A stretch of 64,000 bases of DNA from positions 134,359-198,358 of the forward strand of contig CASEME010000018.1 of the NCBI GenBank assembly GCA_949289125.1, read 5' to 3'. The position numbers were made by a program, and so were the translations under genes. The stretch comes from an uncultured Eubacteriales bacterium (GTDB taxonomy: Bacteria; Bacillota; Clostridia; Christensenellales; CAG-314). Position 1 is the first letter of the stretch. Each line of letters starts with the position of its first letter. Positions 2,335 to 62,825 of the stretch are shown here, piece by piece. The notes beneath the pieces were generated by a model that was not told the origin of the DNA, did not search any database, and was given only the letters and a program-made list of their open reading frames with translations.

Positions 2335-3528
2335 TTATTCTATAGCTTCCTGTTCTAGCTTGCAGTTGTTTGTTAACATGTATTCTGTTAACTTTACAAA
2401 TTCTGCATCTTTAATATTTTTCAATCGTTTAATATCATTTGCTGTTAGTTTTTTCCAGCTTTTTCTGTTCTCAATTAAAGTATCTATATCCATTTTATAA
2501 GGTGCAAATGCAATACCAGTCTTACTCCTTAGATGCTTTAAAATATTAATTCCACCGGCATCTATATCTCCAAAATGTGAAAAGAATAGATTTTGATTAC
2601 TATTATAAAGTTTTTTTAAAAGCATTCTTTTTGTTTGATTATGAAATCCGCCTAAATACACTACAATGCAATCTTCTTTATCAAAAGTGTAAAATGTTGT
2701 TAAATTTTCTACAGTAATAACCTTTTTAGAGCCTATACTAATAAACTTCAAATCATTTATCATTTTGTCTGACAAACAAATTTCATATCCTAATTGCATC
2801 AAATTTATAACAACATTGTTAATTTCAAAACACACATTCCCTTTCATAATGGCATATGTAGTATTTTTTACAAGATTTTTTTCGCACAGAATTTCACAAA
2901 CTGTTTCCTCACTAAAATCGTCTATGCCACAAGTATCGTCAAATTCATATAAGATTTTTGCTATTTTTGTCTTTAATTTTTCAAACTTCTTAGAATCGCC
3001 AAATGTTTTTACGGAAAAGTCTCTAAATTTTGTTTCTTTATCCAATTTTTGTATTTCTTTTAGTCCAAGCAATATTTCATTTAGTTGATTACTTGAATCA
3101 AAATATGCTTTAGGCATAGCATATTTTTTCATTATCCATTCATTGCAAAATGACACAAAGTTGCCTATAATTCCATCTTTACTTTCTGCATTTAATATTT
3201 GACAAACTTTATTCAAATCATCAGCAGGATTGGATCGTTTGAGAAATTTATACACTTCATTTACATTTTCCACATTAAGTTCTAATGATTTAAAATAATC
3301 ATATCTATCTTTTTCAATTTTGATAAAGCCCCATTGACTGTATTGCGAGAGAATAGCGTCATTACGATCTCTATAATTATATGAGTCCCTACACACATAT
3401 GTTTCTAACTCTTTATCGTTGAGACCAAGTGAGATCTTTATATTTTTTTGACTACCTTTTTTAGACAGTACACTATTCTCATATTTGTCTAATAATCTAT
3501 TTAAAATATTCTTGCCAAAAGTTGACAT
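2335..3528 (-). CDS. jetD: Wadjet JetD (MksG-like, Toprim/DUF2220-type nuclease subunit)
   Basis: 397 aa, last gene of a four-gene operon. C-terminal Toprim-like block VITVENLTTFYTF...VYLGGFHN...FSHFGDIDAGGINIL. Sits 8 nt after jetC. Confidence 0.85.
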   Translation of the reverse strand: MSTFGKNILNRLLDKYENSVLSKKGSQKNIKISLGLNDKELETYVCRDSYNYRDRNDAILSQYSQWGFIKIEKDRYDYFKSLELNVENVNEVYKFLKRSNPADDLNKVCQILNAESKDGIIGNFVSFCNEWIMKKYAMPKAYFDSSNQLNEILLGLKEIQKLDKETKFRDFSVKTFGDSKKFEKLKTKIAKILYEFDDTCGIDDFSEETVCEILCEKNLVKNTTYAIMKGNVCFEINNVVINLMQLGYEICLSDKMINDLKFISIGSKKVITVENLTTFYTFDKEDCIVVYLGGFHNQTKRMLLKKLYNSNQNLFFSHFGDIDAGGINILKHLRSKTGIAFAPYKMDIDTLIENRKSWKKLTANDIKRLKNIKDAEFVKLTEYMLTNNCKLEQEAIE

Positions 3529-3536
3529 TATTGCTC

Positions 3537-6500
3537 CTAAGAAATATATTGTATGAATATACGGTTATTAATTTTTGTCAAACCTACTACTGTGTCCATA
3601 TATTCAGTTAGCGTAGCCATTCTTATAGAAGGAACTACTATACATAACTGAATATCCAATTTTTTGTAAAATTCCATCAACGCATTTATCCTACTTTCGT
3701 CCATGTTGTTGAAGGCTTCATCATAAATTACAGTACAAGCAGAAGTATTTTTATCGCCTAAAATTAGTTGATCAAAACATGTAGCTATTATTACATAAAA
3801 TGGTGTCTGCGTTTCGCCACCACTTTTTTCTTTATTTGTTTTGGAAAAATATGAAACATTATCATACTTATTTGTAGTTTTTATATCAAATTTCATATAA
3901 TTTCTATAATCAAGATAACGATTTAACATCTTTTCCGATTCACTACCTGACTTTTCTATTATAATTCTATCGAAAAGTCTTTTTAAAATATCTTTATCTC
4001 TTTCGTCAAGAACTTCATCAAAAAATGTATTGGCTTCTAAGAGCTTACCTGAGGTAATAATTCGATAATAATCTTTCATCTCGTCATCGTCAGAAGAAGA
4101 ATATACAAATTGATAAACCTCATCATCAATTCCAAATGGATTGTCTTTTAAATTTTTGTTTATAGACTTTAATGTATCCTTTGCGTCCTCAATTCTCTCC
4201 GAAAGTTTTGATAGAAAATCTGTCTTAAATCCGCTTTGGCATCTTTCAAACGCAACATCAGCTCTGGATTTATAATCCAACAAGCTTCTGTTTTTCAACT
4301 TATTATATTCATTGACAAAATCTATTACATTTTCAATTAGAGTTGACATACTTGGAGAATACTTGCTAACATATTCTCTCATTCCCCTTTCTATTTCACT
4401 CTTCATTGCATTATTAGAATTTTGTATTTTTTGACTATCTTCCCAAACTTGTCGTAAATCATATTTTTCTTCTGTTACATAATTTGAACAAAATTTTTCA
4501 TAATCTATTTTATCCAGTTTTTGACAAACCTTTGAATATTCTTCACTTTGTGTTTGATAGTCGACTGTCAATTTTTTAATTTCTTCACCTATAGCACCTT
4601 GATCTCTAACTTTAATTTCTTTTTGATGTTCTTCTTCATTTATCCTATTATTAATATTAAGAAGTTCATTTTCTACATTTTTTAAAGTTTCGCTTATTGT
4701 AAAAATATTATCGTCTTTTTCTACTTCGTCTATTTCGGCTTGCACAACTTCACGTTCGCTCATACAAACATCTTTGGCTTTCCATAAATCTTCTATGTCA
4801 ACAATCTCTTTAATTTTTGAACTTTCAATTACTCTAATTAGCTCTTTAAGATTAATCGTTTCTTTTTCTGCTAATTCTTTTTGAGCTTTTAGATCTTCTA
4901 TTTTACCAAGTAAAATGTTTTTTCTTTTTATTATAGAGTTACTGCCGACATACGGATACTCATATATTTCAGGTTTAATATTCCTTACTGTCCTATTTTT
5001 ATATACCATGCAGGTATCAGTAATCGCTGTTTGATAATTTTTTAATTCACCTACACTATCAACACAAACAACATTACCTAATAGCATATGAGCCACAAAT
5101 CGAGCATATTGATTTGTTATATTTAATTTGTTAAACAGTGTATTTTCATTTGTATCATATTCCTTTGCTCTATCACAACGCACTATACCAACGCCATAAA
5201 TATTCAAGTCAAATTTGAATTTTTCATATACTTCAAGCGCATAGTCATAATAATTAGGTTCAATGATCAAATCAAATCTTTGTGTGTTCAAATATCCTTC
5301 GATAGCATTAGCCCATCGCATATCATTTATCTCAAGATATTCACAAAGAGGGCGGACTTCGACGTCTTTTTGATAGTTCTTAAATAGTTCTCTCTTTGAT
5401 AAATCAATTAAGGTAGTTGTCCTTTTATCGTATGTATTCTTTCCCTTTTCTATTGCCTCTAATTCGTGTTGCCGTTCGTGCAAATTACTTTCTATGCTAG
5501 ATATATCTGCTTCTAATTGCAAAAGACGTCTATATTTCTCATCTTTTAAACTTTGTAAATCTTCTTTGTAACTTCTTACATGTTCTTTAAAAAGCCCAAA
5601 GTTTTTATTTTTGATATCTTCAAAAAATCTATATCTTAACCCCAAGTCTTTGATAATTATATTTTCACTTGAAATTATTTTTTCGACATTATCAATTTTT
5701 TTAGAAATTTCGTTAAGTTTAAGTTCTACGTTAGACAAACACTTTTTCTTTTCTTCAAGTACTTTGTATAATTCATTATTTACCAAGTTTATTCTCTGCG
5801 AAACATAACTTGACCTTTTGTCATCTAATTGCTTCAGTGTTTCTCTGTGAATATTTATTCCAGTGACTAACTTTTCATAATCTTTTTCTTTACTTTTAAT
5901 CTTTTTTTCTAAATCTTTTAAGTGCAAAAGAACTTTTATTGCTTCATAAAATTTCAGACGCTTTGTATTTTCATAGTATTTTTCTGCTTTATCAACAAAT
6001 GTCTCTAAAGTTTGAACTTTCTGTTCTTCTTTATCCAACTGCATTTTTATTTCTCTATAACTTCTTATTTCTTCCATCAATGCATCTATTTCTATGTTAT
6101 TATCTTTAAGGAGAAAGTTATTGACAAAAGTTGACACTTCGTTAATGGGTTTGAATGCAATAGCTTTTCTCAACAATTCTGCATATCTTTCTGGATTATC
6201 CAATTTTAATATATCACGGGCAATTGTTTTACGGCGATCCCTTTGAGAGCCATTAAGTTTAGTATCGGAAAATGCAACTTGTTTGGATTTCAAAATGTTT
6301 TTTAATTCTGAAAAATTAACTATCTTACCTTCTTGGATATAATCATTGTCACATATATGATAATTCTGTACAATGTAAAACTTTACCTTGGGCTTACCAT
6401 CATCAACGATTTCTATGGTCGCACCCAGCACCATTGGGAATTTGTCATTTTCATCTTCGTACTGCAAAGCAATATGAGATATAACATCAGCTGTATTTCT

Positions 6501-6752
6501 TAAAAATTCTTTGCCATCTCCTTCATTGCCTAACTTTCCCCTTACATAAGATTTGAGCGTTCTTTTACCATCGGCATTAGCTGCATTATTGAAACAATTA
6601 TCGTCGCCACCCGAAAGCACAAAATATATTGCATCTGTAAGCGTTGACTTTCCGCAACCATTTTCGCCCGTCAACAAAAAATTACCTTGAACCTCTACAC
6701 TAGTATTGATAAAAAAATGCCAATTAATTAATTTAATCTTCGTCAACTTCAT
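3537..6752 (-). CDS. jetC: Wadjet JetC (SMC/MukB-like ATPase)
   Basis: ~1070 aa. Walker A GENGCGKSTLTDAIYF, long coiled-coil middle, signature-like SGGETQTPFYV, Walker B VIYDEAFNNMDESR. Preferred start is ATG 6752 (GAGGAAG RBS); the ORF track start is 6776. Confidence 0.9.
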   Translation of the reverse strand: MKLTKIKLINWHFFINTSVEVQGNFLLTGENGCGKSTLTDAIYFVLSGGDDNCFNNAANADGKRTLKSYVRGKLGNEGDGKEFLRNTADVISHIALQYEDENDKFPMVLGATIEIVDDGKPKVKFYIVQNYHICDNDYIQEGKIVNFSELKNILKSKQVAFSDTKLNGSQRDRRKTIARDILKLDNPERYAELLRKAIAFKPINEVSTFVNNFLLKDNNIEIDALMEEIRSYREIKMQLDKEEQKVQTLETFVDKAEKYYENTKRLKFYEAIKVLLHLKDLEKKIKSKEKDYEKLVTGINIHRETLKQLDDKRSSYVSQRINLVNNELYKVLEEKKKCLSNVELKLNEISKKIDNVEKIISSENIIIKDLGLRYRFFEDIKNKNFGLFKEHVRSYKEDLQSLKDEKYRRLLQLEADISSIESNLHERQHELEAIEKGKNTYDKRTTTLIDLSKRELFKNYQKDVEVRPLCEYLEINDMRWANAIEGYLNTQRFDLIIEPNYYDYALEVYEKFKFDLNIYGVGIVRCDRAKEYDTNENTLFNKLNITNQYARFVAHMLLGNVVCVDSVGELKNYQTAITDTCMVYKNRTVRNIKPEIYEYPYVGSNSIIKRKNILLGKIEDLKAQKELAEKETINLKELIRVIESSKIKEIVDIEDLWKAKDVCMSEREVVQAEIDEVEKDDNIFTISETLKNVENELLNINNRINEEEHQKEIKVRDQGAIGEEIKKLTVDYQTQSEEYSKVCQKLDKIDYEKFCSNYVTEEKYDLRQVWEDSQKIQNSNNAMKSEIERGMREYVSKYSPSMSTLIENVIDFVNEYNKLKNRSLLDYKSRADVAFERCQSGFKTDFLSKLSERIEDAKDTLKSINKNLKDNPFGIDDEVYQFVYSSSDDDEMKDYYRIITSGKLLEANTFFDEVLDERDKDILKRLFDRIIIEKSGSESEKMLNRYLDYRNYMKFDIKTTNKYDNVSYFSKTNKEKSGGETQTPFYVIIATCFDQLILGDKNTSACTVIYDEAFNNMDESRINALMEFYKKLDIQLCIVVPSIRMATLTEYMDTVVGLTKINNRIFIQYIS

Positions 6753-7386
6753 TATATTCTTCCTCTTCTTTTGCAATATAAGTTTTGAGTTTATTATTTA
6801 TTAGATCTATATCATTTATTTTTACAACCATAGCTACTGTAGGAAAAATCTCTACAACATTATTCACCTCATAATTGTTTTTATCGAAATTAATCAACTT
6901 ATATTTTTTTAAATTACTAAGTGCATCTATGATCTGAGTTTTAGGAATTTTATCCTTATTCTTATAAATACCCGTATCATCTAATGCGGACAAAAGTTCA
7001 TCTATGGTTATTGATATGTTGGTATTTGCATCAATACTTTCTTTGCTTTTCAAATAATAAAACTTTCTCAGCAACACCAAAATAACTGTTTCCATTTTCT
7101 TTAATTTTACCCTGTTACGATCAGTTGTACTTTCAAGATAAAATATCTTGCGCATATCGTCATGCACAAGTTGAAATTCTATCATAGCAAAGTATGCTTG
7201 AATAATTTCTTTCATTGCCAATATAGAATAATAATCATTTTTATCTTCACTTAACTGCCCATAAACAAAGTTATATCCTATTAATTTATTACAGAGCTTG
7301 GCGAATAAATCTTTTTTCGTATCATTTAATGTATGATAAATTTCATTGAATTTTGTACATATTGTATCTTTAGAATGTGCACTCAT
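6733..7386 (-). CDS. jetB: Wadjet JetB (MukE/MksE-like, DUF4194-type)
   Basis: 217 aa with an acidic C-terminus. ATGA overlap with jetA stop, overlaps jetC start. Size and position fit the jetABCD order. Confidence 0.75.
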   Translation of the reverse strand: MSAHSKDTICTKFNEIYHTLNDTKKDLFAKLCNKLIGYNFVYGQLSEDKNDYYSILAMKEIIQAYFAMIEFQLVHDDMRKIFYLESTTDRNRVKLKKMETVILVLLRKFYYLKSKESIDANTNISITIDELLSALDDTGIYKNKDKIPKTQIIDALSNLKKYKLINFDKNNYEVNNVVEIFPTVAMVVKINDIDLINNKLKTYIAKEEEEYNEVDED

Positions 7387-8777
7387 TTCTTTTTCTCCAC
7401 AATGTAATCTGTTATTAATTTGTCCTTACAATAAAATACTTTTTGATTATATGTAATCGAATACGAAACTATTTTATTTTGACTGTATAATCCTGCTAAA
7501 AATACCTTGATTAAATCTTCGCTATCACAAATATTCATTTGCGATGCCGTCATGCTATTCCTTTCTCCTAATTGTTTACTGATAAATTTGTCAATACTTC
7601 TACAATTAAATTTTGTTTCATTAATAAATTTTTCTCTTGATTTTTTTAATTCAACTTCGGCAACAGGATCAATTACATAATCCAGTTGTGATGTTGCATT
7701 TCTTCTTCTAATTCTTGGCGTATATAAAGAATTTTCATCCAATTTACCAAAATCAAATATAGAAAACAAACCCATATCATCAACATAATCGTCACTTTGA
7801 GCAATATTTTTAAGTAGCTCAATAATCTTACCTTCAATATCAACTTCCTCATTTAACAAGAAAGCAATCTTTGACTTTGCAGTCGTTGCATATTTTGTAT
7901 TTCTTTTGTTGAGATTTTCCAAGTTGTCTTCGATATCATTAAACTGATCTAAAACATATCCCAGAGCCTCACGAAAAAAACTCTCTGCTTCTTTTTGATT
8001 TTCTTCATTAACGATTCCATTTTTTTTCTTATTGATATATTCTCCCACCATATTGGAAAAATTATCTCTTTCAAATAGTGATTTTATCTTATCTATAATT
8101 GAATGTTTATATTTAGCAGGATTATCCTTGATTCTTAAATTATCAAAAGTTTTTAAAATTACCTTATCTTGATATTCCACTAAAAATTGATCCAATATTT
8201 CCCTAGGCGTCAAGCTTTCATTTGCCAGTAGCTTTCGAATATATTTTTTTATACTTACATTTAGTCCCCTTAGCCTATCTATCAATTCTTTCGTATTTTT
8301 ATACATCTGCTCTACGATATCAGTGGAGTGAGCAGTTTGAAAATTTTTAAGGGCAGAGTAAATGCTATAAACATAACCTGTATATTCTACAGGTCTTGTA
8401 TCATTTTTTACAATTTCTTCCATTGCATTGAGAATTATAATAGCATTACTATCCATTTGATATGTTGTTTTTAATAGTTTATTATCATTTTCGTCTACTA
8501 CCCAACCATATTTCAAAAAATATCGCAATTTTTTTGATGCAATTGTTTTAATATCAGCACTTTCTATTTCACCACTTTCATCATCATAAATATTTGATGG
8601 GCAATTTTCAAGATAATCCACTAGCCATGAAAGTACCTCATCACGAGGAAACTGTTTCATTTCATTATTCATTTTAAGATTTATTAGGCATAGCAAATCA
8701 TAATTTAATCTTTTATTGATCCCCGTTAAAGGAAGAAAGAATTTCTCATTCACGAATTCAAAAAAATTTGTTGACAT
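7383..8777 (-). CDS. jetA: Wadjet JetA (MukF/MksF-like kleisin, DUF3375-type)
   Basis: ~464 aa, first gene of the operon, size and position as in jetABCD. ORF track start 8783 is a GTG; ATG at 8777 follows a GAGG. Confidence 0.75.
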   Translation of the reverse strand: MSTNFFEFVNEKFFLPLTGINKRLNYDLLCLINLKMNNEMKQFPRDEVLSWLVDYLENCPSNIYDDESGEIESADIKTIASKKLRYFLKYGWVVDENDNKLLKTTYQMDSNAIIILNAMEEIVKNDTRPVEYTGYVYSIYSALKNFQTAHSTDIVEQMYKNTKELIDRLRGLNVSIKKYIRKLLANESLTPREILDQFLVEYQDKVILKTFDNLRIKDNPAKYKHSIIDKIKSLFERDNFSNMVGEYINKKKNGIVNEENQKEAESFFREALGYVLDQFNDIEDNLENLNKRNTKYATTAKSKIAFLLNEEVDIEGKIIELLKNIAQSDDYVDDMGLFSIFDFGKLDENSLYTPRIRRRNATSQLDYVIDPVAEVELKKSREKFINETKFNCRSIDKFISKQLGERNSMTASQMNICDSEDLIKVFLAGLYSQNKIVSYSITYNQKVFYCKDKLITDYIVEKKK

Positions 8778-8950
8778 ATGCACCTCAAAAAAAATAATAC
8801 AATATTAGCCTTTTAATCTTATTACAAAACAATTTATACTTTATAATCCAATGCATTATAAATAGAACTGACAAATATAGATTTAACTTTTGTTTATATT
8901 CAAACTCTATCCTATCAATTCTCTTGGTGATATAAGTGCTTCTATATGTA

Positions 8951-44378: not shown

Positions 44379-44536
44379 AGATTATAGTACAGTTTGTACA
44401 ACTTGTCAAACAGAGTAGGTACAAAGTATTACACTTTGTCCGCATTTTCAATTTGACATTGCGTTGTTGCAAAGCGGACGAGCTATACACATAAACTATA
44501 AAGACAAAAGTTTATGTGGGAGGTAGTACGTCTATT

Positions 44537-45229
44537 ATGTTTGCTTCACTTTTGCGGTTTTTGAAAAAACTGTTTTTCTTTACCGGATACTTTACCAACA
44601 GCACCTATCCACAACCGCTGTCTTCCCAAGAAGAGCGCAAATATCTTGAAGCTATGCAAAAGGGGGACGCCAACGCAAGAGAAAAACTTATTTATCACAA
44701 TATGCGACTTGTGGCACACATTGCAAAAAAATATTCGTCCTGCAATGACACGGACGACCTTATATCCATAGGCTCTATTGGGCTTATAAAAGGTATAGAA
44801 AGTTATCACAGCGGCAAAGGCACTACACTCGCCACCTACCTTGCGCGGTGTATAGACAATGAGATACTTATGAGCTTACGTTCCAACAAAAAGTACAAAA
44901 ATACCGTGTATTTGCAAGAACAGCTTGGTGTAGACAACGAGGGCAACGAGTACACTTTGTTGGAGATACTCTCTGCAGGAGAAGAAAGCGTGTTTCGCAA
45001 AGTGGAACTGTCTATTTTGAGGCAAAATTTGTTGCGGCTTATGAATTTGCACCTCAATAAGCGTGAAAATCAGATACTTACCATGCGCTTTGGACTCAAC
45101 GGAGATGCACCGCTTACACAGTTGCAAGCAGCAGAAAAATTAAAAATCAGTCGTAGCTACGTGTCACGCATAGAGACCAAAGCATTGTCCAAACTTCGCG
45201 ACAAAATGTCGCCCGAAGATATGCTATAA
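44537..45229 (+). CDS. sigK: sporulation sigma factor SigK (pro-sigma-K, uninterrupted)
   Basis: Pro-sequence plus YPQPLSSQEERKYLEAMQKGDANAREKLIYHNMRLVAHIAKKY and ISIGSIGLIKGIESY closely parallel B. subtilis pro-sigma-K (FPQPLSSSEEKKYL...). The ORF could start at GTG 44516. Confidence 0.85.
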   Translation: MFASLLRFLKKLFFFTGYFTNSTYPQPLSSQEERKYLEAMQKGDANAREKLIYHNMRLVAHIAKKYSSCNDTDDLISIGSIGLIKGIESYHSGKGTTLATYLARCIDNEILMSLRSNKKYKNTVYLQEQLGVDNEGNEYTLLEILSAGEESVFRKVELSILRQNLLRLMNLHLNKRENQILTMRFGLNGDAPLTQLQAAEKLKISRSYVSRIETKALSKLRDKMSPEDML

Positions 45230-46225: not shown

Positions 46226-48721
46226 ATGAGCAAACAAAAACAATCAAATGTTGCAACACAGACACGCAAACCTATCAACAAAAATGCGTTGATAATATCT
46301 ATAGTTTGTGTTGTTACGGCTTTGGTAATTGCGGTATCTTTGATTATAGCTTTGTGGCCCGCACCTGCGGACAAGACCATTGCCGACCTCGACAATCCTA
46401 CAATCGAAACGTCCGATTCCACCATCAAAAATGGTGACTTCAGCTATGTTGGCGAAGAGGCTACGCTGTATCCCAAGTCTGCGCAGGATTGGAGCAAATA
46501 CACTTGGCAAGAGCCTACCAATTCCACCACTCAATACTACAAAGAGATATTGTCCAATACAAACACTCTTATGGGTATTGTGGACACCAACGATTGGGAC
46601 AAAGTAAGTAGCGACCTATCCAAGTACGGAATAACTATTGACAACCCCGGAATACCTGTACAGGACGCCAAAGACAGCAATGTGTATATGATACACAACA
46701 GAGAGCAGTACTCTGCAAGTATTTATTCGAGAAGTTTTTCCGTTGCGGCATCCACATCAGTCAAAATATCCGTATACCTCAAAACTGTAAATGTTGACGG
46801 CGCAGGTGCTTTTGTTATGGTAAAACAAAACTCCAACAACGCTGTAGAAACATCTTCGAGCAACACTCAGTATTGGTATATGCACAAAGGTATCAAAGAC
46901 GCTGGCGTAACGGGCACTACCGAATGGCAAAAGTATGACTTTTATTTCTTCAATCAGACGTCATCGTCCAAAACATTGTACATCAACGTTGGTCTTGGCA
47001 ATATCTATGACAACACCACCGCAACAGGTACTTTGTTTATTGACGAAATAACTTACGAAACAGTTACTGCCAACGACTATCGTCTGCACAAAGATGACGG
47101 CAACAGTGCTTACACTGCAGAAAAAGAGAGTGAGGACAACCCCTCTACAGTTGCTACATTGAGTGGCAGTGATCCCGGCAATGTTACTGCAGATGCTGTT
47201 ACTGCAGGTCAATACCTTACAGAATACACCTACTCACCTTTCCTCAATGATGCTGACAACCTTATTAAAGTAAGCAACAACGGTACTTACAGCGGACAAG
47301 TTGCTGTAAAGAGTAGCAATATTACTGTTGATGGCCCTTCCACCAATACACACTTGCATATCAGCTTGTGGGTAAGAGTAATAAGCGAAAACAACTCTGT
47401 ATTGCCCAATGCCAACATTTATCTGTATGAACAAGGCAACACTACCGAGCTTTCGAGTTTTACAGCTGTACGTACATCTGTAGAGATAGAGACAGACGAC
47501 AACAATGGTTGGTTGCAATACCACTTCTATGTAAGACCTGCACAAGGCAACAAAACACTGTACTTGCTTATAAGTTTGGGTGACAAAAACGGTTATGTCA
47601 ATACAGACGCTATACCCAACGGCACAATGTACGTAAGTTACCCTGTTGTAGAAGAGATTACTCGTGACGAATACTCCTCCGCTACATCAGGCACATATGT
47701 AAATACTGTAGACTTGGGCAACACCTATACAAGTAGCGATGCATTCTTTGATACGTTTGACTCCTACACCAACAACAGCAGCACTACAGGTTTGCTTACA
47801 CCCTCGGGCTGGACTCCTGTATATGCAGGCGCAGTAGAACTTACCAAAAACGGCAAAGACGACATTACAGTCAACGACTCTTACAACAGTGTAACATCTG
47901 GTATAGAGCGTGACAGTGCAGTTGCTCCCACTAACGACAAAGAAGAAAAAGCAGTACTCAAAATTACCAACAACGTAAGTACGGCATTTGGATATATGTC
48001 CTCTGACATTTCCCTGTCGGCTAACACAGTGTACCTTATCTCTGTACTTGGTCGCAGCGACGGCACTGCAAAACCCTCTGTGTACCTTATGGACTACGAT
48101 GAGGACAACAACGTATCTATGTCTTACGCTTTGTCCACCATCAACAACAAAGTTGACGACGATAAGTTTAACAACCTTGAACAGACAGGTTGGACAAGAT
48201 ACTACTTTATAGTAGCAACAGGCGACACAGCAAAGACTGTAAGATTGGTATTGTTTAACGGTGCTATGGACGCAACAGGAAGTGACACTTCCAAACAATC
48301 TTCGGGTACAGTTTACTTTGACCAAGCATGGGCAAAGAGCATAGGCACTTACAAACGTGACAACACAGCAGAACAGTTGTACACAAAGGACGACAACGGT
48401 GAATGGATACTTGACGAAGAATTGGCAAAGGAAATGACATACACCGTTACTGCTGGCTATGACGAGTTGGATACACTTATTGCAGACCTTCAGAACGAAG
48501 ACGGCACATACAAGTTTGACAACATTCAAATAGTAGACAACAGACTTACCGATATTGCAACACCTACAGAGGAAGAGGACGGAGACACTGATGGCGATAC
48601 CACAACGCCTACCAACAATGTAGATGCAGGCTTGATAGTAAGTATAGTAATAAGCTCACTGTTGCTTGCTGCTGTAATAATAGTTGTACTTGTAAAATTT
48701 GTATTCCGCAGAAGAGGCTAA
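46226..48721 (+). CDS. large surface protein with N- and C-terminal membrane anchors and three CBM/jelly-roll-like modules
   Basis: 831 aa. N-terminal TM (ALIISIVCVVTALVIAVSLIIAL) and C-terminal TM plus RRRG. Three modules each end LFIDEITYE / MYVSYPVVEEIT / VYFDQAWAKSI. Confidence 0.6.
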   Translation: MSKQKQSNVATQTRKPINKNALIISIVCVVTALVIAVSLIIALWPAPADKTIADLDNPTIETSDSTIKNGDFSYVGEEATLYPKSAQDWSKYTWQEPTNSTTQYYKEILSNTNTLMGIVDTNDWDKVSSDLSKYGITIDNPGIPVQDAKDSNVYMIHNREQYSASIYSRSFSVAASTSVKISVYLKTVNVDGAGAFVMVKQNSNNAVETSSSNTQYWYMHKGIKDAGVTGTTEWQKYDFYFFNQTSSSKTLYINVGLGNIYDNTTATGTLFIDEITYETVTANDYRLHKDDGNSAYTAEKESEDNPSTVATLSGSDPGNVTADAVTAGQYLTEYTYSPFLNDADNLIKVSNNGTYSGQVAVKSSNITVDGPSTNTHLHISLWVRVISENNSVLPNANIYLYEQGNTTELSSFTAVRTSVEIETDDNNGWLQYHFYVRPAQGNKTLYLLISLGDKNGYVNTDAIPNGTMYVSYPVVEEITRDEYSSATSGTYVNTVDLGNTYTSSDAFFDTFDSYTNNSSTTGLLTPSGWTPVYAGAVELTKNGKDDITVNDSYNSVTSGIERDSAVAPTNDKEEKAVLKITNNVSTAFGYMSSDISLSANTVYLISVLGRSDGTAKPSVYLMDYDEDNNVSMSYALSTINNKVDDDKFNNLEQTGWTRYYFIVATGDTAKTVRLVLFNGAMDATGSDTSKQSSGTVYFDQAWAKSIGTYKRDNTAEQLYTKDDNGEWILDEELAKEMTYTVTAGYDELDTLIADLQNEDGTYKFDNIQIVDNRLTDIATPTEEEDGDTDGDTTTPTNNVDAGLIVSIVISSLLLAAVIIVVLVKFVFRRRG

Positions 48722-59356: not shown

Positions 59357-60619
59357 CTATGCAGCTTCTTTGGTAGTAGTATTTGGTCGCCTCAACAAAA
59401 AGTCCATATAGTTGGCAAACACATCAGCTTTTACTTTGATACTTGTAGCCACTGTATAATTATCTTTGTCTGCACCCACCAATCGTATATCGCTTACCAC
59501 TACTGTCTTGTCCTTGCCGTACAAAGAGTCTTCAAACTTAGCTTTGATAGAACCCAAAGCCACCTCGTCACCTTCGATAACGCCGTTGAGCGTTCCTATT
59601 TGGTCGAGCTGTGCACTTGCCGTACCATCGTAGTTTTTGTGTTGTGCCGACATACCGCTTATATCCAAAACTTTGGGCGTTATTGTGCCATTGAGCTTAC
59701 TGTTTTGTGTGTCTATCACATAATTGCAAGCGTCCTCACCCTCAAGTGTAATGCGTTGCAAATCCACTGCTTTTTGCTTGCCTACGTTTTTGTCTGTAAA
59801 GTGCAAAGACTGCACGTTGACATACACCTCGTCACCTTCTTTGACGCCTTTCAAAGTTAGCTGATATCCGCTTATATTGTCCGTACCGTCATACGTCTTA
59901 ACTATCGGTCTGTCGCAGTGCACAGTGATAGGCAATGGCAATACGCTAAGTGTACCTGTAATTACTTCCACGTCATAACCATCGCACACTATCTCACCTT
60001 TGGGCTCGAGCACATAGTTGCCCACCTTTTGGTGAGGTATTGACACTACAGCTACGTCGCCTTGAGGACACTGTCCGCCATAACCGTCTATATAGCCTTT
60101 GATACTGTAAGTGACTTGCGGTTGCTCATCGCCATAATAACAAGACGCATTGGGCACTACTACGCTAAGAAGGGGACGTTTTACTTTGACATTCATCACT
60201 TGCGTATAGCCTGTACCCACATTGACACGCACATTGTAGTTGCCCGTATGCATTGGAGCTATGTCTATGGCAATCTGCCGTCCCTTAGAATAACGCCCTG
60301 TATATACACGCTTGTTTTCCACATACCAACTTACTTGTGCGCCCTCTTTCACTTCGACATCTCCCAACTGCAAAGTAAGCCGTTGTTGCTCACCCACACG
60401 CATTGTTGAGTTACCCTCTATCTTACCTATATAGGTAACGTTGGCATTGACAAAGTAACGCAAAGCCAACATAAGGCTTAGTGCGATTACCGTTGCTATC
60501 AATATACCGATAAGCAACTTTTGAGCTGTGCGCCTATCGGCTTGTTGTATAGTCTGCGCTTGCTCAGTTGTAGCAGACTTCTTGCTCTTAGTCGTATGCT
60601 CACTTTCTTTTTTTGCCAT
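59357..60619 (-). CDS. membrane-anchored surface protein with MBG/YDG-type repeat domains
   Basis: N-terminal TM after a basic leader. Repeated K.YDGT...L.G...GD.V motifs (VKTYDGTDNIS, HKNYDGTASAQL) and ...DNYTV. Confidence 0.6.
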   Translation of the reverse strand: MAKKESEHTTKSKKSATTEQAQTIQQADRRTAQKLLIGILIATVIALSLMLALRYFVNANVTYIGKIEGNSTMRVGEQQRLTLQLGDVEVKEGAQVSWYVENKRVYTGRYSKGRQIAIDIAPMHTGNYNVRVNVGTGYTQVMNVKVKRPLLSVVVPNASCYYGDEQPQVTYSIKGYIDGYGGQCPQGDVAVVSIPHQKVGNYVLEPKGEIVCDGYDVEVITGTLSVLPLPITVHCDRPIVKTYDGTDNISGYQLTLKGVKEGDEVYVNVQSLHFTDKNVGKQKAVDLQRITLEGEDACNYVIDTQNSKLNGTITPKVLDISGMSAQHKNYDGTASAQLDQIGTLNGVIEGDEVALGSIKAKFEDSLYGKDKTVVVSDIRLVGADKDNYTVATSIKVKADVFANYMDFLLRRPNTTTKEAA

Positions 60620-60806: not shown

Positions 60807-61433
60807 TTATTCTGCCTTGTCTTCATCGGTTGCGGGCAATGCTACTTCTTCGTCTGTAAAGTGGTCGTATCTCATCTTCATTTGACCGAAGAAGAAGGTT
60901 ATCAATTCGCGCGAATAGCGTGCTTGCATCTCTGCAGTCTGACCGTTGTTGAGAATTTTGAACAATGCAGTTAAAAAACTCTCTGCTATTGCATCATAAA
61001 AGTCGGGGTTACTAATTTTGTTGTCTATCTCAGGAAAAGCCTCTTTCATCATTTTCCTAATCTTGCCCGATATTACTTCCACTATATATTTGATAAATGC
61101 ATCATAATGTACAGTCTTGCCCTTGCGGATAATCAGTATCTCGTCGCTGTATTGCATAAGAAAACTAACCAACGATTCCGATACTTCTTTCATTGTACGA
61201 CCTTTGAAAACAAACTCCTTTTCTATAGTTTGCTTTACGCTGTCAATAAAAGGATTGATGACAGCAAAATACAATGACTCCTTATTGGTAAAGTAACGAT
61301 AAATGTTACCCAAAGAAATCTCGGCATTGTCGGCTATGTTACGAATTGATGCATCGGCATAACCGTATTGCTTAAACTCCTCTACGGCCGCTGCCAATAT
61401 TCGTTCTCTGACTTCCTTTTTCAAGTACTGCAT
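60807..61433 (-). CDS. TetR/AcrR-family transcriptional regulator
   Basis: RERILAAAVEEFKQYGYADASIRNIADNAEISLGNIYRYFTNKESL. Start at 61433 after GAGGAG. Confidence 0.85.
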   Translation of the reverse strand: MQYLKKEVRERILAAAVEEFKQYGYADASIRNIADNAEISLGNIYRYFTNKESLYFAVINPFIDSVKQTIEKEFVFKGRTMKEVSESLVSFLMQYSDEILIIRKGKTVHYDAFIKYIVEVISGKIRKMMKEAFPEIDNKISNPDFYDAIAESFLTALFKILNNGQTAEMQARYSRELITFFFGQMKMRYDHFTDEEVALPATDEDKAE

Positions 61434-61525
61434 AAGTTGCTCCTCGTGTACTATTGTAGCACAGTGAACAACGAAAAGCAAGTACTTTTTTGAAGCACGA
61501 GCTATAAATATATTTTATGTTTATT

Positions 61526-62257
61526 TTAGTATGCACACTCCAACAACATTTTGTCTGCCAACAAAGCTATAAATTCGCCATTTGTAGGCTTTTCTTGTGA
61601 GGAGTATACTTTGACGCCAAACAACGAATTGATATTTTCTATTTTGCCTCTGTTCCAAGCTACTTCTATAGCATGACGTATAGCACGTTCGACTTTGCTG
61701 GATGTTGTGTCAAACTTGCTTGCAATAGTAGGATACAGACTTTTGGTAATAGAGTTGATTATCGGCGGATTGTCCACTGCCAATTTGATGCCCTCTCTCA
61801 AAAATTGATAGCCCTTAATATGCGCAGGTATGCCCACGCTTACAAATATATTGCTTATGCGCTCGTCCAAAGTCTTTTCGGATACGCTTTTGCGACGTAC
61901 CATACGAGCGTTGTTGGCAACAGCTTTGTTTGCCGCTTGATAAATACGCTGTTCGAGCACACCATACTCTACAGGCTTTACAAGATAATAAGACGCACCA
62001 AGCTCCAACGCTTTTATTATAAACACTTCGCTCTTAAGCTCCGTAGCCACAATAAATTTTACATTGGACACGCTCTCAAGCAATGCAAAGCCGTCTGCGC
62101 CCGACATCACCAATTCTGTCACCACTACATCGGGCTTGTATTGCTCTATACATTGACGTGCGCCTGTGCCGTCTGTACTGAACACTATTTCAAAATCCGC
62201 ATTTTTGCGCAACTGCTCTTCACTTTCCGATTGACATACCAAACCTACTTTTATCAT
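61526..62257 (-). CDS. spo0A: Spo0A (sporulation master regulator) with atypical receiver domain
   Basis: C-terminal signature GIPAHIKGYQFLREGI...ITKSLYPTIASKFDTTSSKVERAIRHAIEVAWNRG...KPTNGEFIALLADK. Start ATG 62257 after GGAGGCG. The receiver has CQ for the DD pair and E48 for the phospho-acceptor Asp. Confidence 0.9.
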   Translation of the reverse strand: MIKVGLVCQSESEEQLRKNADFEIVFSTDGTGARQCIEQYKPDVVVTELVMSGADGFALLESVSNVKFIVATELKSEVFIIKALELGASYYLVKPVEYGVLEQRIYQAANKAVANNARMVRRKSVSEKTLDERISNIFVSVGIPAHIKGYQFLREGIKLAVDNPPIINSITKSLYPTIASKFDTTSSKVERAIRHAIEVAWNRGKIENINSLFGVKVYSSQEKPTNGEFIALLADKMLLECAY

Positions 62258-62340
62258 ATCCGCCTCCGTTAATTGTAAAAAGAGTATATCATACTTTTGA
62301 ATGAAAATAAAATACTTTTGTGCAAAAATATTTGTATTTT

Positions 62341-62357
62341 TGTCTAAAAGTGTCGAA
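62341..62357 (+). promoter_or_regulatory. 0A-box-like motifs between spo0A and spoIIID
   Basis: TGTCTAA-aag-TGTCGAA. TGTCGAA (62351-62357) is the core Spo0A box, ~95 nt upstream of the spo0A start. Confidence 0.4.
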
Positions 62358-62555
62358 CGCACCCAAAATTTGTTTTGACATAAAGAATTGCCACGTTTAT
62401 GCGGCGCAAAACGCAAAAATTGAAGTAAATTGTATATGTTGAGGTGTGTATTGCAGTTATTTAATTGCTTTTTGTATCTATGTTTGCCTTACACTACGCA
62501 TATTTACAAAAATCGACAATATATTATAACAACACATATTCTCAAGGGGAGTAAA

Positions 62556-62825
62556 ATGAAACAATACATACGGGCACGCATTATTGAAGTGGCAGATTAT
62601 ATTATTGCCACTCGTTGCACCGTGCGTCAAGCCGGCAAAAAGTTTTGCCTGTCCAAGTCCACCGTGCACAAAGACATGCAACAACGTCTGCCCGAAGTAG
62701 ACAGAGAAAAATGGCAAACGGTCAACAACGTGTTGGAAAATAATCTCAGTCAACGTCATTTGCGCGGCGGTATAGCCACCAAACGCAAGTACCAAAAGCA
62801 ACGAATGTTGAACACCTCCGTTTGA
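62556..62825 (+). CDS. spoIIID: stage III sporulation protein D
   Basis: MKQYIRARIIEVADYIIATRCTVRQAGKKFCLSKSTVHKDMQQRLPEVD...SQRHLRGGIATKRKYQ parallels B. subtilis SpoIIID. Start after GGGGAG. Confidence 0.9.
   Translation: MKQYIRARIIEVADYIIATRCTVRQAGKKFCLSKSTVHKDMQQRLPEVDREKWQTVNNVLENNLSQRHLRGGIATKRKYQKQRMLNTSV

Follow-up and report, generated by a model that had tools for sequence, protein, structure and literature searches.

Receiver domains bind Mg2+ through an Asp–Asp pair and are docked by kinases mainly at helix α1, and in Spo0A a further Asp is the phosphorylation site of the sporulation phosphorelay. Canonical Spo0A (as in B. subtilis, G. stearothermophilus and C. difficile; PDB 1qmp, 1dz3, 1lq1, 1fc3) has both the acidic pair and the acceptor Asp, carries an 0A box upstream of its own gene and is usually encoded in a spoIVB–spo0A neighbourhood. 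Sad67 of B. subtilis is a laboratory allele in which a receiver mutation, i.e. an in-frame deletion in the α3 region, was engineered or selected in a phosphorelay organism. In sad67 strains, phosphorylation-independent active Spo0A switches on early sporulation genes, with sporulation then requiring both the level of the protein and a second permissive signal (PMC4689505). According to current reviews, all endospore formers activate Spo0A via phosphorylation of the conserved Asp (PMC11210211).

Atypical receivers are also known outside the Spo0A family. ChxR of Chlamydia trachomatis, an atypical member of the OmpR/PhoB family, carries a Glu in place of the acceptor Asp, and its dimerisation, DNA binding and activation of transcription do not require phosphorylation (PMC3960148; PMC4395418). 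RitR, FrzS, HP1043/HsrA, GlnR, BldM and WhiI also belong to these Asp-less or pseudo-receivers, with BldM and WhiI being developmental regulators of Streptomyces that work as atypical regulators (PMC4125116), but none of the characterised ones has a Spo0A_C output domain. A full-text literature search found no description of a Spo0A pseudo-receiver, the sole trace being S6 Table of a 2015 census, where Asp-less Spo0A-type proteins are given as a count (7 of 391) without discussion.

The gene analysed here lies in a window of 64,000 nucleotides (on contig CASEME010000018.1) from an uncultured Eubacteriales bacterium. Its product shares the two-domain architecture and the receiver fold of canonical Spo0A, and an 0A box is found upstream of the gene, whereas the acidic pair and the acceptor Asp are all three replaced; the spoIVB–spo0A neighbourhood is not seen, the conserved neighbour being a TetR-family gene instead. 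Unlike the Sad67 mutation, these replacements of active-site residues are natural and clade-wide. In its acceptor Glu the protein resembles ChxR, which differs from Spo0A, however, in the family of its output domain and in its biology. Overall, we consider it probable, though well short of assured, that the gene is the spo0A orthologue of an uncultured lineage of gut Clostridia, that its receiver is a conserved pseudo-receiver and that the protein is naturally independent of phosphorylation, its activity depending on a partner or on how strongly it is expressed. The textbook phosphorylation trigger thus probably does not operate here. If true, a Spo0A that occurs naturally, is strongly conserved and is unable to use Asp chemistry would depart from this rule and would provide a minimal system for studying a sporulation decision that is taken by the level or the partner of a regulator rather than by a kinase.

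Gene product and receiver active site

The spo0A coding sequence (61526–62257, minus strand) specifies 243 amino acids plus a stop codon, begins with ATG at 62257–62255 and is preceded by a conserved GGAGG ribosome-binding site (62263–62267, minus strand). A TTG start at 62416, which would give 296 amino acids, was rejected, since nothing in the extension resembles a receiver and orthologues begin at MIK or VIK behind the conserved ribosome-binding site. The identification as Spo0A, originally made from the C-terminus, is borne out by profiles and solved structures alike. The Spo0A_C DNA-binding/effector domain (residues 134–236; 61550–61858, minus strand) covers positions 1–103 of the 104 in Pfam profile PF08769 (E = 6.8e-40) and is aligned by phmmer with 1lq1 and 1fc3 at an E of about 1e-38, with the stretch VERAIRHAIEVAW being identical and the recognition-helix sequence of canonical Spo0A kept. 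Foldseek matches the same domain to solved Spo0A structures, including the Spo0A-C/DNA complex 1lq1, with TM-scores of 0.87–0.93 and 57% identity. The entire product also passes the equivalog cut-off of NCBIfam TIGR02875 (spore_0_A) with 222.3 bits versus 200, a margin which is small because the first 13 receiver residues remain unaligned.

The pseudo-receiver domain (residues 1–110; 61928–62257, minus strand) is recognised by Pfam Response_reg PF00072 over residues 14–105 (E = 2.8e-12; 47.2 bits versus a cut-off of 30.2). An AlphaFold2 model of the protein (mean pLDDT 88.6, with receiver blocks averaging 92–97) has five β–α units, i.e. a (βα)5 fold, and Foldseek superimposes this domain on phosphorylated Spo0A-N (1qmp) with TM-scores of 0.83–0.86 and 28–29% identity. 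Relative to canonical Spo0A, the alignments show helix α1 to be shorter by 3 residues and the α3–β4 loop by 5–6, while the α4–β5–α5 region is kept.

Three of the receiver's five active-site residues are replaced, namely both members of the Asp–Asp pair and the acceptor Asp. In a MAFFT alignment of the window protein with 120 homologues and B. subtilis Spo0A (the latter as an approximate sequence), Cys8–Gln9 (codons at 62231–62236, minus strand) stand at the position of the Mg2+-binding Asp10–Asp11, and Glu48 (GAA at 62114–62116, minus strand) stands at that of the phospho-acceptor, Asp56 in B. subtilis. In the HMMER alignment to the Spo0A receiver 1dz3/1qmp, 'pdvvvtElvm' falls on 'PDILLLDIIM', which therefore puts Glu48 at the acceptor Asp, and the same residue occupies this position in the alignment to 5wq0. 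Thr72 (62042–62044, minus strand), at the end of β4, and Lys94 (61976–61978, minus strand), just after β5, represent the conserved Thr/Ser and Lys of receivers, and Tyr91 is retained as well. The AlphaFold2 model has β1 at residues 2–7, β3 at 44–47, β4 at 67–72 and β5 at 88–93; Cys8–Gln9 are thus the first two residues after β1 and Glu48 is the first after β3, and together with Thr72 and Lys94 they are predicted to lie at the C-terminal ends of the strands, where receivers have their active site. All of the residue assignments made in the initial annotation—Cys–Gln for the acidic pair, Glu for the acceptor, Thr and Lys retained—therefore stand, and neither HMMER nor MAFFT nor the model offered a better alignment with an Asp at the acceptor position.

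By sequence criteria, the window protein classifies as a pseudo-receiver and as an aspartate-less receiver (ALR). With the Mg2+-binding carboxylates gone at Cys8–Gln9 and Glu48 in place of the acceptor, canonical His-to-Asp phosphotransfer should, from what is known of receiver chemistry, be unable to operate.

Conservation across a clade of gut Clostridia

A survey of relatives for the Cys–Gln/Glu pattern, suggested along with the original observation, strengthens the case for phosphorylation independence: none of 134 related sequences, 47 of which come from species-representative gut metagenome-assembled genomes (MAGs), has the acidic pair. This clade, known among the members surveyed from MAGs only, includes Candidatus Limihabitans and Candidatus Fimimonas, the latter being placed by GTDB in the Christensenellales family CAG-314. 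Positions 8–9 follow the pattern [G/C/E/S/A][Q/N], i.e. Cys8 is not conserved and is Gly in most members, while position 9 is an amide in most (Gln alone in 89%); the conserved Lys is kept in 95%. At the acceptor position, Glu occurs in 109 of 134 members and Asp in the other 25, which are pseudo-receivers but not ALRs. Asp and Glu have switched several times on the tree, also among close relatives, and the window protein (C-Q-E) has a relative of 77% identity, P0002, with C-Q-D. The residues in the pocket are coupled, Gly8 going with Glu48 rather than Asp48 (83 versus 3) and Glu8 with Asp48 rather than Glu48 (14 versus 5).

Both domains are under purifying selection, with a median ω of 0.09 for the receiver and an ω of 0.03 for the effector domain, as estimated from the 28 of 1128 pairs with a usable dS between 0.05 and 1.5, the remaining pairs being saturated. 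A receiver that is under such selection and has kept its fold must therefore still have a role. The term 'degenerate', by which the domain had been described, is misleading, since this variant is conserved and subject to purifying selection. What defines the variant, moreover, is that the acidic pair has been lost and not that Asp became Glu; the nearest relative, P0002, has Asp.

Promoter of spo0A and sporulation context

The 0A box TGTCGAA (TTCGACA on the spo0A strand) is located at 62351–62357 on the plus strand, i.e. antisense to spo0A, 100 nt upstream of the start codon. Such a box is present at −86 to −121 in 36 of 48 loci, with a density of 2.9 per kb versus a background of 0.23 per kb, and its spacing to the −10 element is fixed across the clade loci. 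This element, a putative extended −10 of spo0A (TGATATACT, 62283–62291, minus strand; clade consensus TGnTAnAAT), stands out as a conserved block when the loci are aligned, with a match to TGnTAn[A/C][A/C]T in 40 of 48 loci, and may well have promoter activity. The canonical relatives L058 and L059, as well as L060 with its acceptor Glu, likewise carry the box upstream of spo0A; it is therefore older than the loss of the acidic pair in the clade and has been kept thereafter. Within the window, by comparison, TGTCGAA is not enriched (6 occurrences versus 6.8 expected) and the extended TTTGTCGAAA has 0 occurrences, so the box would be meaningful only through its conservation across species. The earlier suggestion that it is compatible with autoregulation draws its support from this comparison, the window by itself carrying no signal. 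With a canonical 0A box fixed upstream of a σA-type extended −10, Spo0A most likely autoregulates, and the conserved box supports the view that both DNA binding and autoregulation of spo0A have been retained.

Is it still sporulation that this regulator controls? The divergent neighbour of spo0A in the window is spoIIID (62553–62825, plus strand; Pfam SpoIIID, E = 6.1e-32), and sigK, encoding a sporulation sigma factor, is found at 44516–45229 on the plus strand (NCBIfam NF004471 SigK, 292.3 bits versus a cut-off of 252). The gene caller sets the sigK start 21 nt further downstream, for a product of 230 amino acids. The presence of SigK and SpoIIID in the window would suggest that the regulon is still that of sporulation. 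It is also conceivable, though in our judgement unlikely, that the lineage no longer sporulates and that Spo0A, SigK and SpoIIID are remnants or have been re-used for another programme, of stationary phase or of colonisation; in that case the pseudo-receiver would reflect a relaxed need for the phosphorelay input to sporulation rather than a novel route into it. This would fit with the small genomes of Ca. Fimimonas (1.3–1.4 Mb) and with a machine-learning study in which most Christensenellales MAGs came out as non-sporulating (PMC12536801). Moreover, spoIIID adjoins spo0A only in the sub-branch of the window (the window, L008 and L050), and in the annotated pseudo-receiver loci no sporulation gene beyond spoIIID in these three was seen near spo0A, whereas SipL and SpoIIR adjoin it in the canonical L058; a tblastn search of the clade loci with SipL, SpoIIR, SigK and SpoIIID recovered SpoIIID only, in L008 and L050. 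Loss of sporulation is, however, argued against by strong purifying selection on both domains of Spo0A, by the conservation of the 0A box and by intact sigK and spoIIID in the window, both of which are specific to late mother-cell development. It also concerns the output of the system and as such would be compatible with phosphorylation independence.

Mode of activation, TetR neighbour and orthology

Phosphorylation could still control this Spo0A by non-canonical chemistry at position 48 or at another residue, with Gln9 and backbone carbonyls binding the metal, or else by Ser/Thr/Tyr/Cys modification, but we hold this to be improbable. It would fit with the retention of Thr72, Lys94 and Tyr91, with the prevalent amide at position 9 and with the acceptor Asp in 25 members, many of which have Glu at position 8. 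The ALR paper also mentions other modifications as a possibility at residues that replace the acceptor (PMC4395418). Members with Glu8-Gln9-Asp48, in which two carboxylates and an amide are left, may still bind metal weakly and be phosphorylated. In the window protein and most of the clade, however, both metal-binding carboxylates are missing, and the same paper knows of no bacterial signalling by glutamyl phosphate (PMC4395418). In addition, switching between Asp and Glu among close relatives is unexpected of a catalytic nucleophile, Cys8 is not conserved (Gly in most members), and helix α1, the main surface at which kinases dock on receivers, is shortened.

For the phosphorylation-independent Spo0A that we favour, the following mode of action can be proposed. 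Without phosphate, the receiver most likely holds the protein in, or lets it reach, a state competent for dimerisation and DNA binding; position 48 may, with its acidic side chain pairing with Thr72 and Lys94, provide a built-in partial phosphomimic; and the near-canonical C-terminal domain would bind DNA, with Spo0A autoregulating through the 0A box. Activation of the regulon would then be decided by the amount of Spo0A, by a partner or by a ligand, and not by a kinase or phosphorelay. A strict scan for an H-box plus a G2-box, which has little power in the 906 kb of largely syntenic loci that it covered, returned 0 kinase-like ORFs. With respect to the phosphomimic, Glu is the commonest acceptor substitution in Asp-less receivers and can act in this partial manner (PMC4395418; PMC12632262). 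Against the proposed mode of action, the ALR paper states that B. subtilis Spo0A is not activated by the Asp-to-Glu change alone (PMC4395418). Caution about the phosphomimic comes from ChxR, where DNA binding in vitro persisted after the Glu had been changed to Asp or Ala (PMC4395418), such that Glu may not be the activating feature. As for phosphorylation independence itself, the cautious suggestion of the initial annotation is supported, having come through the alignment, codon and gene-order checks, and the Sad67 allele is a precedent for it (PMC4689505).

Which partner might be involved? The TetR-family gene next to spo0A (60807–61433, minus strand; Pfam TetR_N, E = 1.9e-14) adjoins it in 47 of 47 full-length clade loci as well as in the canonical relative L059, and has −35 and extended −10 elements of its own (TGTGCTACAAT at 61453–61463). 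Its best NCBIfam match, RefZ, reaches 46.8 bits versus a cut-off of 180 and is confined to the HTH region, and its PDB matches are generic TetR proteins, i.e. neither search assigns it to a specific TetR family. By its adjacency, this regulator is a candidate functional partner of spo0A and, more speculatively, given that it is invariably adjacent, a candidate input. An input that was born together with the pseudo-receiver can be ruled out, as canonical L059 already has the order spo0A-tetR-YDG; because of this presence in L059, the linkage to tetR is older than the pseudo-receiver and did not originate as a substitute input.

The order spo0A-tetR-YDG is common to the canonical L059 (D-D...D), the deep pseudo-receiver branch L062 and the clade, and this speaks for an orthologue over a side copy. 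That sporulation is run by another, canonical spo0A in the same genome, with the window copy being an accessory regulator, is very improbable. What might speak for it is that unusual Spo0A_C architectures are known among metagenomic proteins and that the contigs of the genomes were scanned with a pattern specific for the pseudo-receiver. Nevertheless, the same scan with this pattern returned one locus from each of 49 assemblies, the window protein lies above the Spo0A equivalog cut-off, its gene order is that of canonical L059, and the clade branches from within canonical Spo0A on the tree instead of forming a paralogue branch of its own. An artefact of sequencing or assembly, or a decaying pseudogene, is effectively refuted by an intact reading frame, a residue pattern conserved across the clade, an ω far below 1 and an identical 243-amino-acid protein on 7 independently assembled contigs (the 6 listed coming from 6 different samples), which means that the codons at the altered residues are not read errors.

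A more far-reaching scenario, which we offer tentatively and regard as rather unlikely, is that this clade of gut Clostridia starts endospore formation entirely without phosphotransfer, using a constitutively competent pseudo-receiver in a purely transcriptional switch, in which a positive autoregulatory loop through the 0A box would be gated by the adjacent TetR regulator sensing a small molecule, and that the same or similar solutions arose repeatedly. Genome-based predictors of sporulation take the presence of spo0A as a marker, with the type of receiver unchecked (PMC12536801). This is of practical relevance, since among the 45 diverse metagenomic Spo0A representatives closest to the window protein, 9 have no acceptor Asp, a count that would also fit with a repeated origin.

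A Spo0A protein with an altered receiver pocket

The spo0A open reading frame of the window (61526-62257, minus strand; 243 codons) begins with an ATG start codon, with a GGAGG ahead of it. The initial annotation had recognized a Spo0A effector domain in its product, and profile and structure searches bear this out: Pfam Spo0A_C matches residues 134-236 (E = 6.8e-40), TIGR02875, the NCBIfam Spo0A equivalog, is passed (222.3 bits; cut-off, 200), and in a phmmer search against solved structures the C-terminal half matches Spo0A-C of B. subtilis and G. stearothermophilus (1lq1, 1fc3; E about 1e-38), including an identical VERAIRHAIEVAW stretch. The N-terminal half matches Pfam Response_reg at residues 14-105 (E = 2.8e-12) and, again in phmmer, the Spo0A receivers 1dz3/1qmp and 5wq0. 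Here, 'pdvvvtElvm' lies opposite 'PDILLLDIIM', which puts Glu48 at the phospho-acceptor site. In a MAFFT alignment that includes 120 homologues and B. subtilis Spo0A (its C-terminal part being consistent with the alignment to 1lq1), Cys8-Gln9 stand opposite Asp10-Asp11 of B. subtilis Spo0A, and Thr72 and Lys94 opposite the conserved Thr and Lys. The substitution of the Asp-Asp pair and of the acceptor Asp as well as the retention of Thr and Lys had all been read from the sequence beforehand and hold in these alignments, with the coordinates of the three altered codons being exact. Judged by its residues, the protein is a pseudo-receiver and, by current definition, also an aspartate-less receiver (ALR).

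An AlphaFold2 model built from 56 sequences (mean pLDDT 88.6) features five beta-alpha units, with positions 8-9, 48, 72 and 94 at the C-terminal ends of beta1, beta3, beta4 and beta5, i.e. at the ends of the strands that form the active site of receivers. In Foldseek comparisons, the receiver model resembles phosphorylated Spo0A-N (1qmp; TM 0.83-0.86, identity 28-29%) and the effector model resembles 1lq1 and 1fc3 (TM 0.87-0.93, identity 57%). Compared to canonical Spo0A, helix alpha1, the chief docking surface for kinase and phosphotransferase helices, is three residues shorter, and the alpha3-beta4 loop is shorter by 5-6 residues. The receiver had been termed 'degenerate', which does not fit its pattern of substitution: the receiver has a median omega of 0.09 and the effector one of 0.03 (Nei-Gojobori, 28 pairs with unsaturated dS), so this domain is a conserved variant rather than a decaying one.

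Distribution and residue pattern of the clade

The same 243-aa protein occurs on at least seven contigs (six of them from six different samples, with neighbours alike), and the receiver variant is neither an error nor a one-off. A search of 5.8 billion proteins found about 100 clusters without the acidic pair, all at 59-77% identity, with remoter matches being canonical (D/E-D/E...D). A scan for a pseudo-receiver-specific motif, with each GTDB species represented by a single genome, yielded 49 loci, all in gut metagenome-assembled genomes (sheep, goat, deer, rabbit, chicken, mouse and human) and including Candidatus Fimimonas and Ca. Limihabitans. No cultured isolates were found among the clade members; all those found are metagenome-assembled genomes or metagenomic contigs. 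In a neighbour-joining tree, the pseudo-receiver sequences form a single clade (n=134), which is nested within canonical Spo0A sequences from related, uncultured Clostridia.

When this clade was surveyed for the CQ/E pattern, as the initial annotation had proposed, the acidic pair was absent throughout, with the acceptor position being Glu (n=109) or Asp (n=25) and having changed several times on the tree. The window protein is C-Q-E and its nearest relative P0002, 77% identical, is C-Q-D. Position 8 holds one of five residues (G, C, E, S or A), and position 9 almost invariably carries an amide side chain, Gln in 89% of sequences and Asn in those of the deep branch. Gly8 pairs with Glu48 (83 to 3) and Glu8 with Asp48 (14 to 5) which, in phylogenetically non-independent counts, suggests that these residues are sterically or electrostatically coupled and that the pocket remains important. 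In beta4-alpha4 and beta5-alpha5, many positions (L74, E77, F79, A83, G87, Y90, Y91, K94, P95, L101 and R104) are common to the clade and its canonical relatives; G5, Q9, F26, R34, E73, K75 and V78 are found in the clade only.

According to a 2024 minireview, Spo0A is activated by phosphorylation of the conserved Asp in all endospore formers (PMC11210211), and we found no description of a Spo0A pseudo-receiver in the literature, where the sole trace is S6 Table of a 2015 ALR census, which counts seven of 391 Response_reg~Spo0A_C proteins as ALRs and makes no comment on them. When 1.84 billion representatives were searched with the C-domain, 481 proteins matched at E <= 1e-30. Among the 45 listed representatives whose receiver is near-complete, nine lack the acceptor Asp (E and G three times each, Q, N and S once each), so Asp-less Spo0A is recurrent in metagenomic Clostridia, in a sample biased to relatives of the query. 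Independent losses were seen in other Spo0A lineages (loci L054 and L055, proteins P0137, P0175, P0180, P0211, P0247 and P0257); some keep the acidic pair (G-D-D...Gln in L055 and P0137), and in others the acceptor position is occupied by Gly, Asn or Ser. Metagenomic proteins with 2-4 tandem Spo0A_C domains also turned up (P0121-P0125, P0127, P0134, P0141, P0143 and others), most of those read lacking a receiver and P0134 having a receiver-like N-terminus. We know of no description of this architecture.

Ca. Fimimonas is GTDB genus CAG-1435 (family CAG-314, order Christensenellales) with a genome of 1.3-1.4 Mb (PMC8035907). NCBI taxonomy has it in Myxococcaceae, with related genomes titled 'Corallococcus sp.'; these genomes encode Spo0A, and spoIIID adjoins spo0A in one of them (L008). 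The Myxococcaceae placement looks like a taxonomy error.

Promoter and neighbourhood of spo0A

A TGTCGAA 0A box lies at 62351-62357 (TTCGACA on the spo0A strand). Its proposed compatibility with autoregulation gains support from its conserved position and not from the window alone, in which TGTCGAA is not enriched (6 found vs 6.8 expected). Upstream of spo0A, 36/48 loci have the strict box in the same orientation at 86-121 nt from the start codon (extended form TTTTCGACAAA). Its density reaches 2.9 per kb within the 300 nt preceding spo0A, compared with 0.23 per kb across 829 kb of background. A conserved extended -10 element (TGnTAnAAT) occurs in 40 loci; when upstream sequences are anchored on it gap-free, the end of the box falls 53 nt ahead of the -10 hexamer in most of these loci. 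Several species carry extra CGACA repeats in helical phase. At L015 and L021, five tandem 11-nt CGACAAAAAA repeats with 0A-box cores in helical phase directly precede the extended -10 element. Since the same box is found upstream of spo0A in the canonical relatives L058 and L059 and in L060 (acceptor Glu), it is an inherited 0A box kept after the loss of the active-site residues. This supports autoregulation, with 0A-box binding that we infer to be retained.

A TetR-family gene adjoins spo0A in 47/47 full-length clade loci. It usually follows spo0A on the same strand, 80-160 nt downstream, and lies upstream in divergent orientation in one sub-branch; adjacency survives inverted gene order, and the gene is still there in the deep branch (34-36% identity). 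In the window (60807-61433, minus strand), it has its own near-consensus promoter with -35 and extended -10 elements. A 420-aa YDG and MBG domain protein (59357-60619, minus strand) accompanies spo0A-tetR in the window, L008, L052/L062 and L059. The spo0A-tetR-YDG order common to canonical (D-D...D) L059 and deep-branch L062 speaks for the pseudo-receiver gene being orthologous to canonical spo0A by position, and its occurrence in L059 shows that the TetR linkage is older than the active-site loss. Canonical L058 has SipL, SpoIIR and Veg beside spo0A, without a TetR gene. In the window, spoIIID lies upstream of spo0A in divergent orientation, an arrangement confined to its own sub-branch, and the window also contains sigK (44516-45229; NF004471, 292 bits vs a cut-off of 252). 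A CAAAAATGAAAA motif recurs right after the spo0A stop codon at many loci.

Possible control of activity, and other features of the window

Overall, the Mg2+-binding and phosphate-accepting residues are replaced and the fold and switch residues retained, with a conserved DNA-binding domain and cis-element and a receiver constrained by selection. Judging from established receiver chemistry (PMC12632262), His-to-Asp phosphotransfer should not be possible. The acidic residue 48 would most likely stabilize an active-like state together with Thr72 and Lys94, and either Spo0A abundance, under positive autoregulation, or a partner or ligand would then govern activity. There are precedents: the sad67 form of B. 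subtilis Spo0A, which is independent of phosphorylation, switches on early sporulation genes and supports sporulation given a second permissive signal (PMC4689505), and ChxR and similar Glu-bearing atypical regulators are active without phosphate (PMC3960148, PMC4395418). Asp-to-Glu by itself fails to activate B. subtilis Spo0A, and changing the Glu of ChxR to Asp or Ala does not abolish DNA binding in vitro (PMC4395418). Clade members with Glu8-Gln9-Asp48 might retain weak phosphorylation. As most metagenome-assembled Christensenellales genomes are classed as non-sporulating by a published predictor (PMC12536801), the output in some members may be other than sporulation.

Elsewhere in the window, an 831-aa open reading frame (46226-48721, plus strand) is annotated as a gene in public assemblies and has no Pfam match on record. 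PADLOC detected a complete type I Wadjet (JetABCD) anti-plasmid operon (2335-8783, minus strand), consisting of JetA (7383-8783; 251 bits), JetB (6733-7386; 135 bits), JetC (3537-6776; 805 bits) and JetD (2335-3528; 316 bits).
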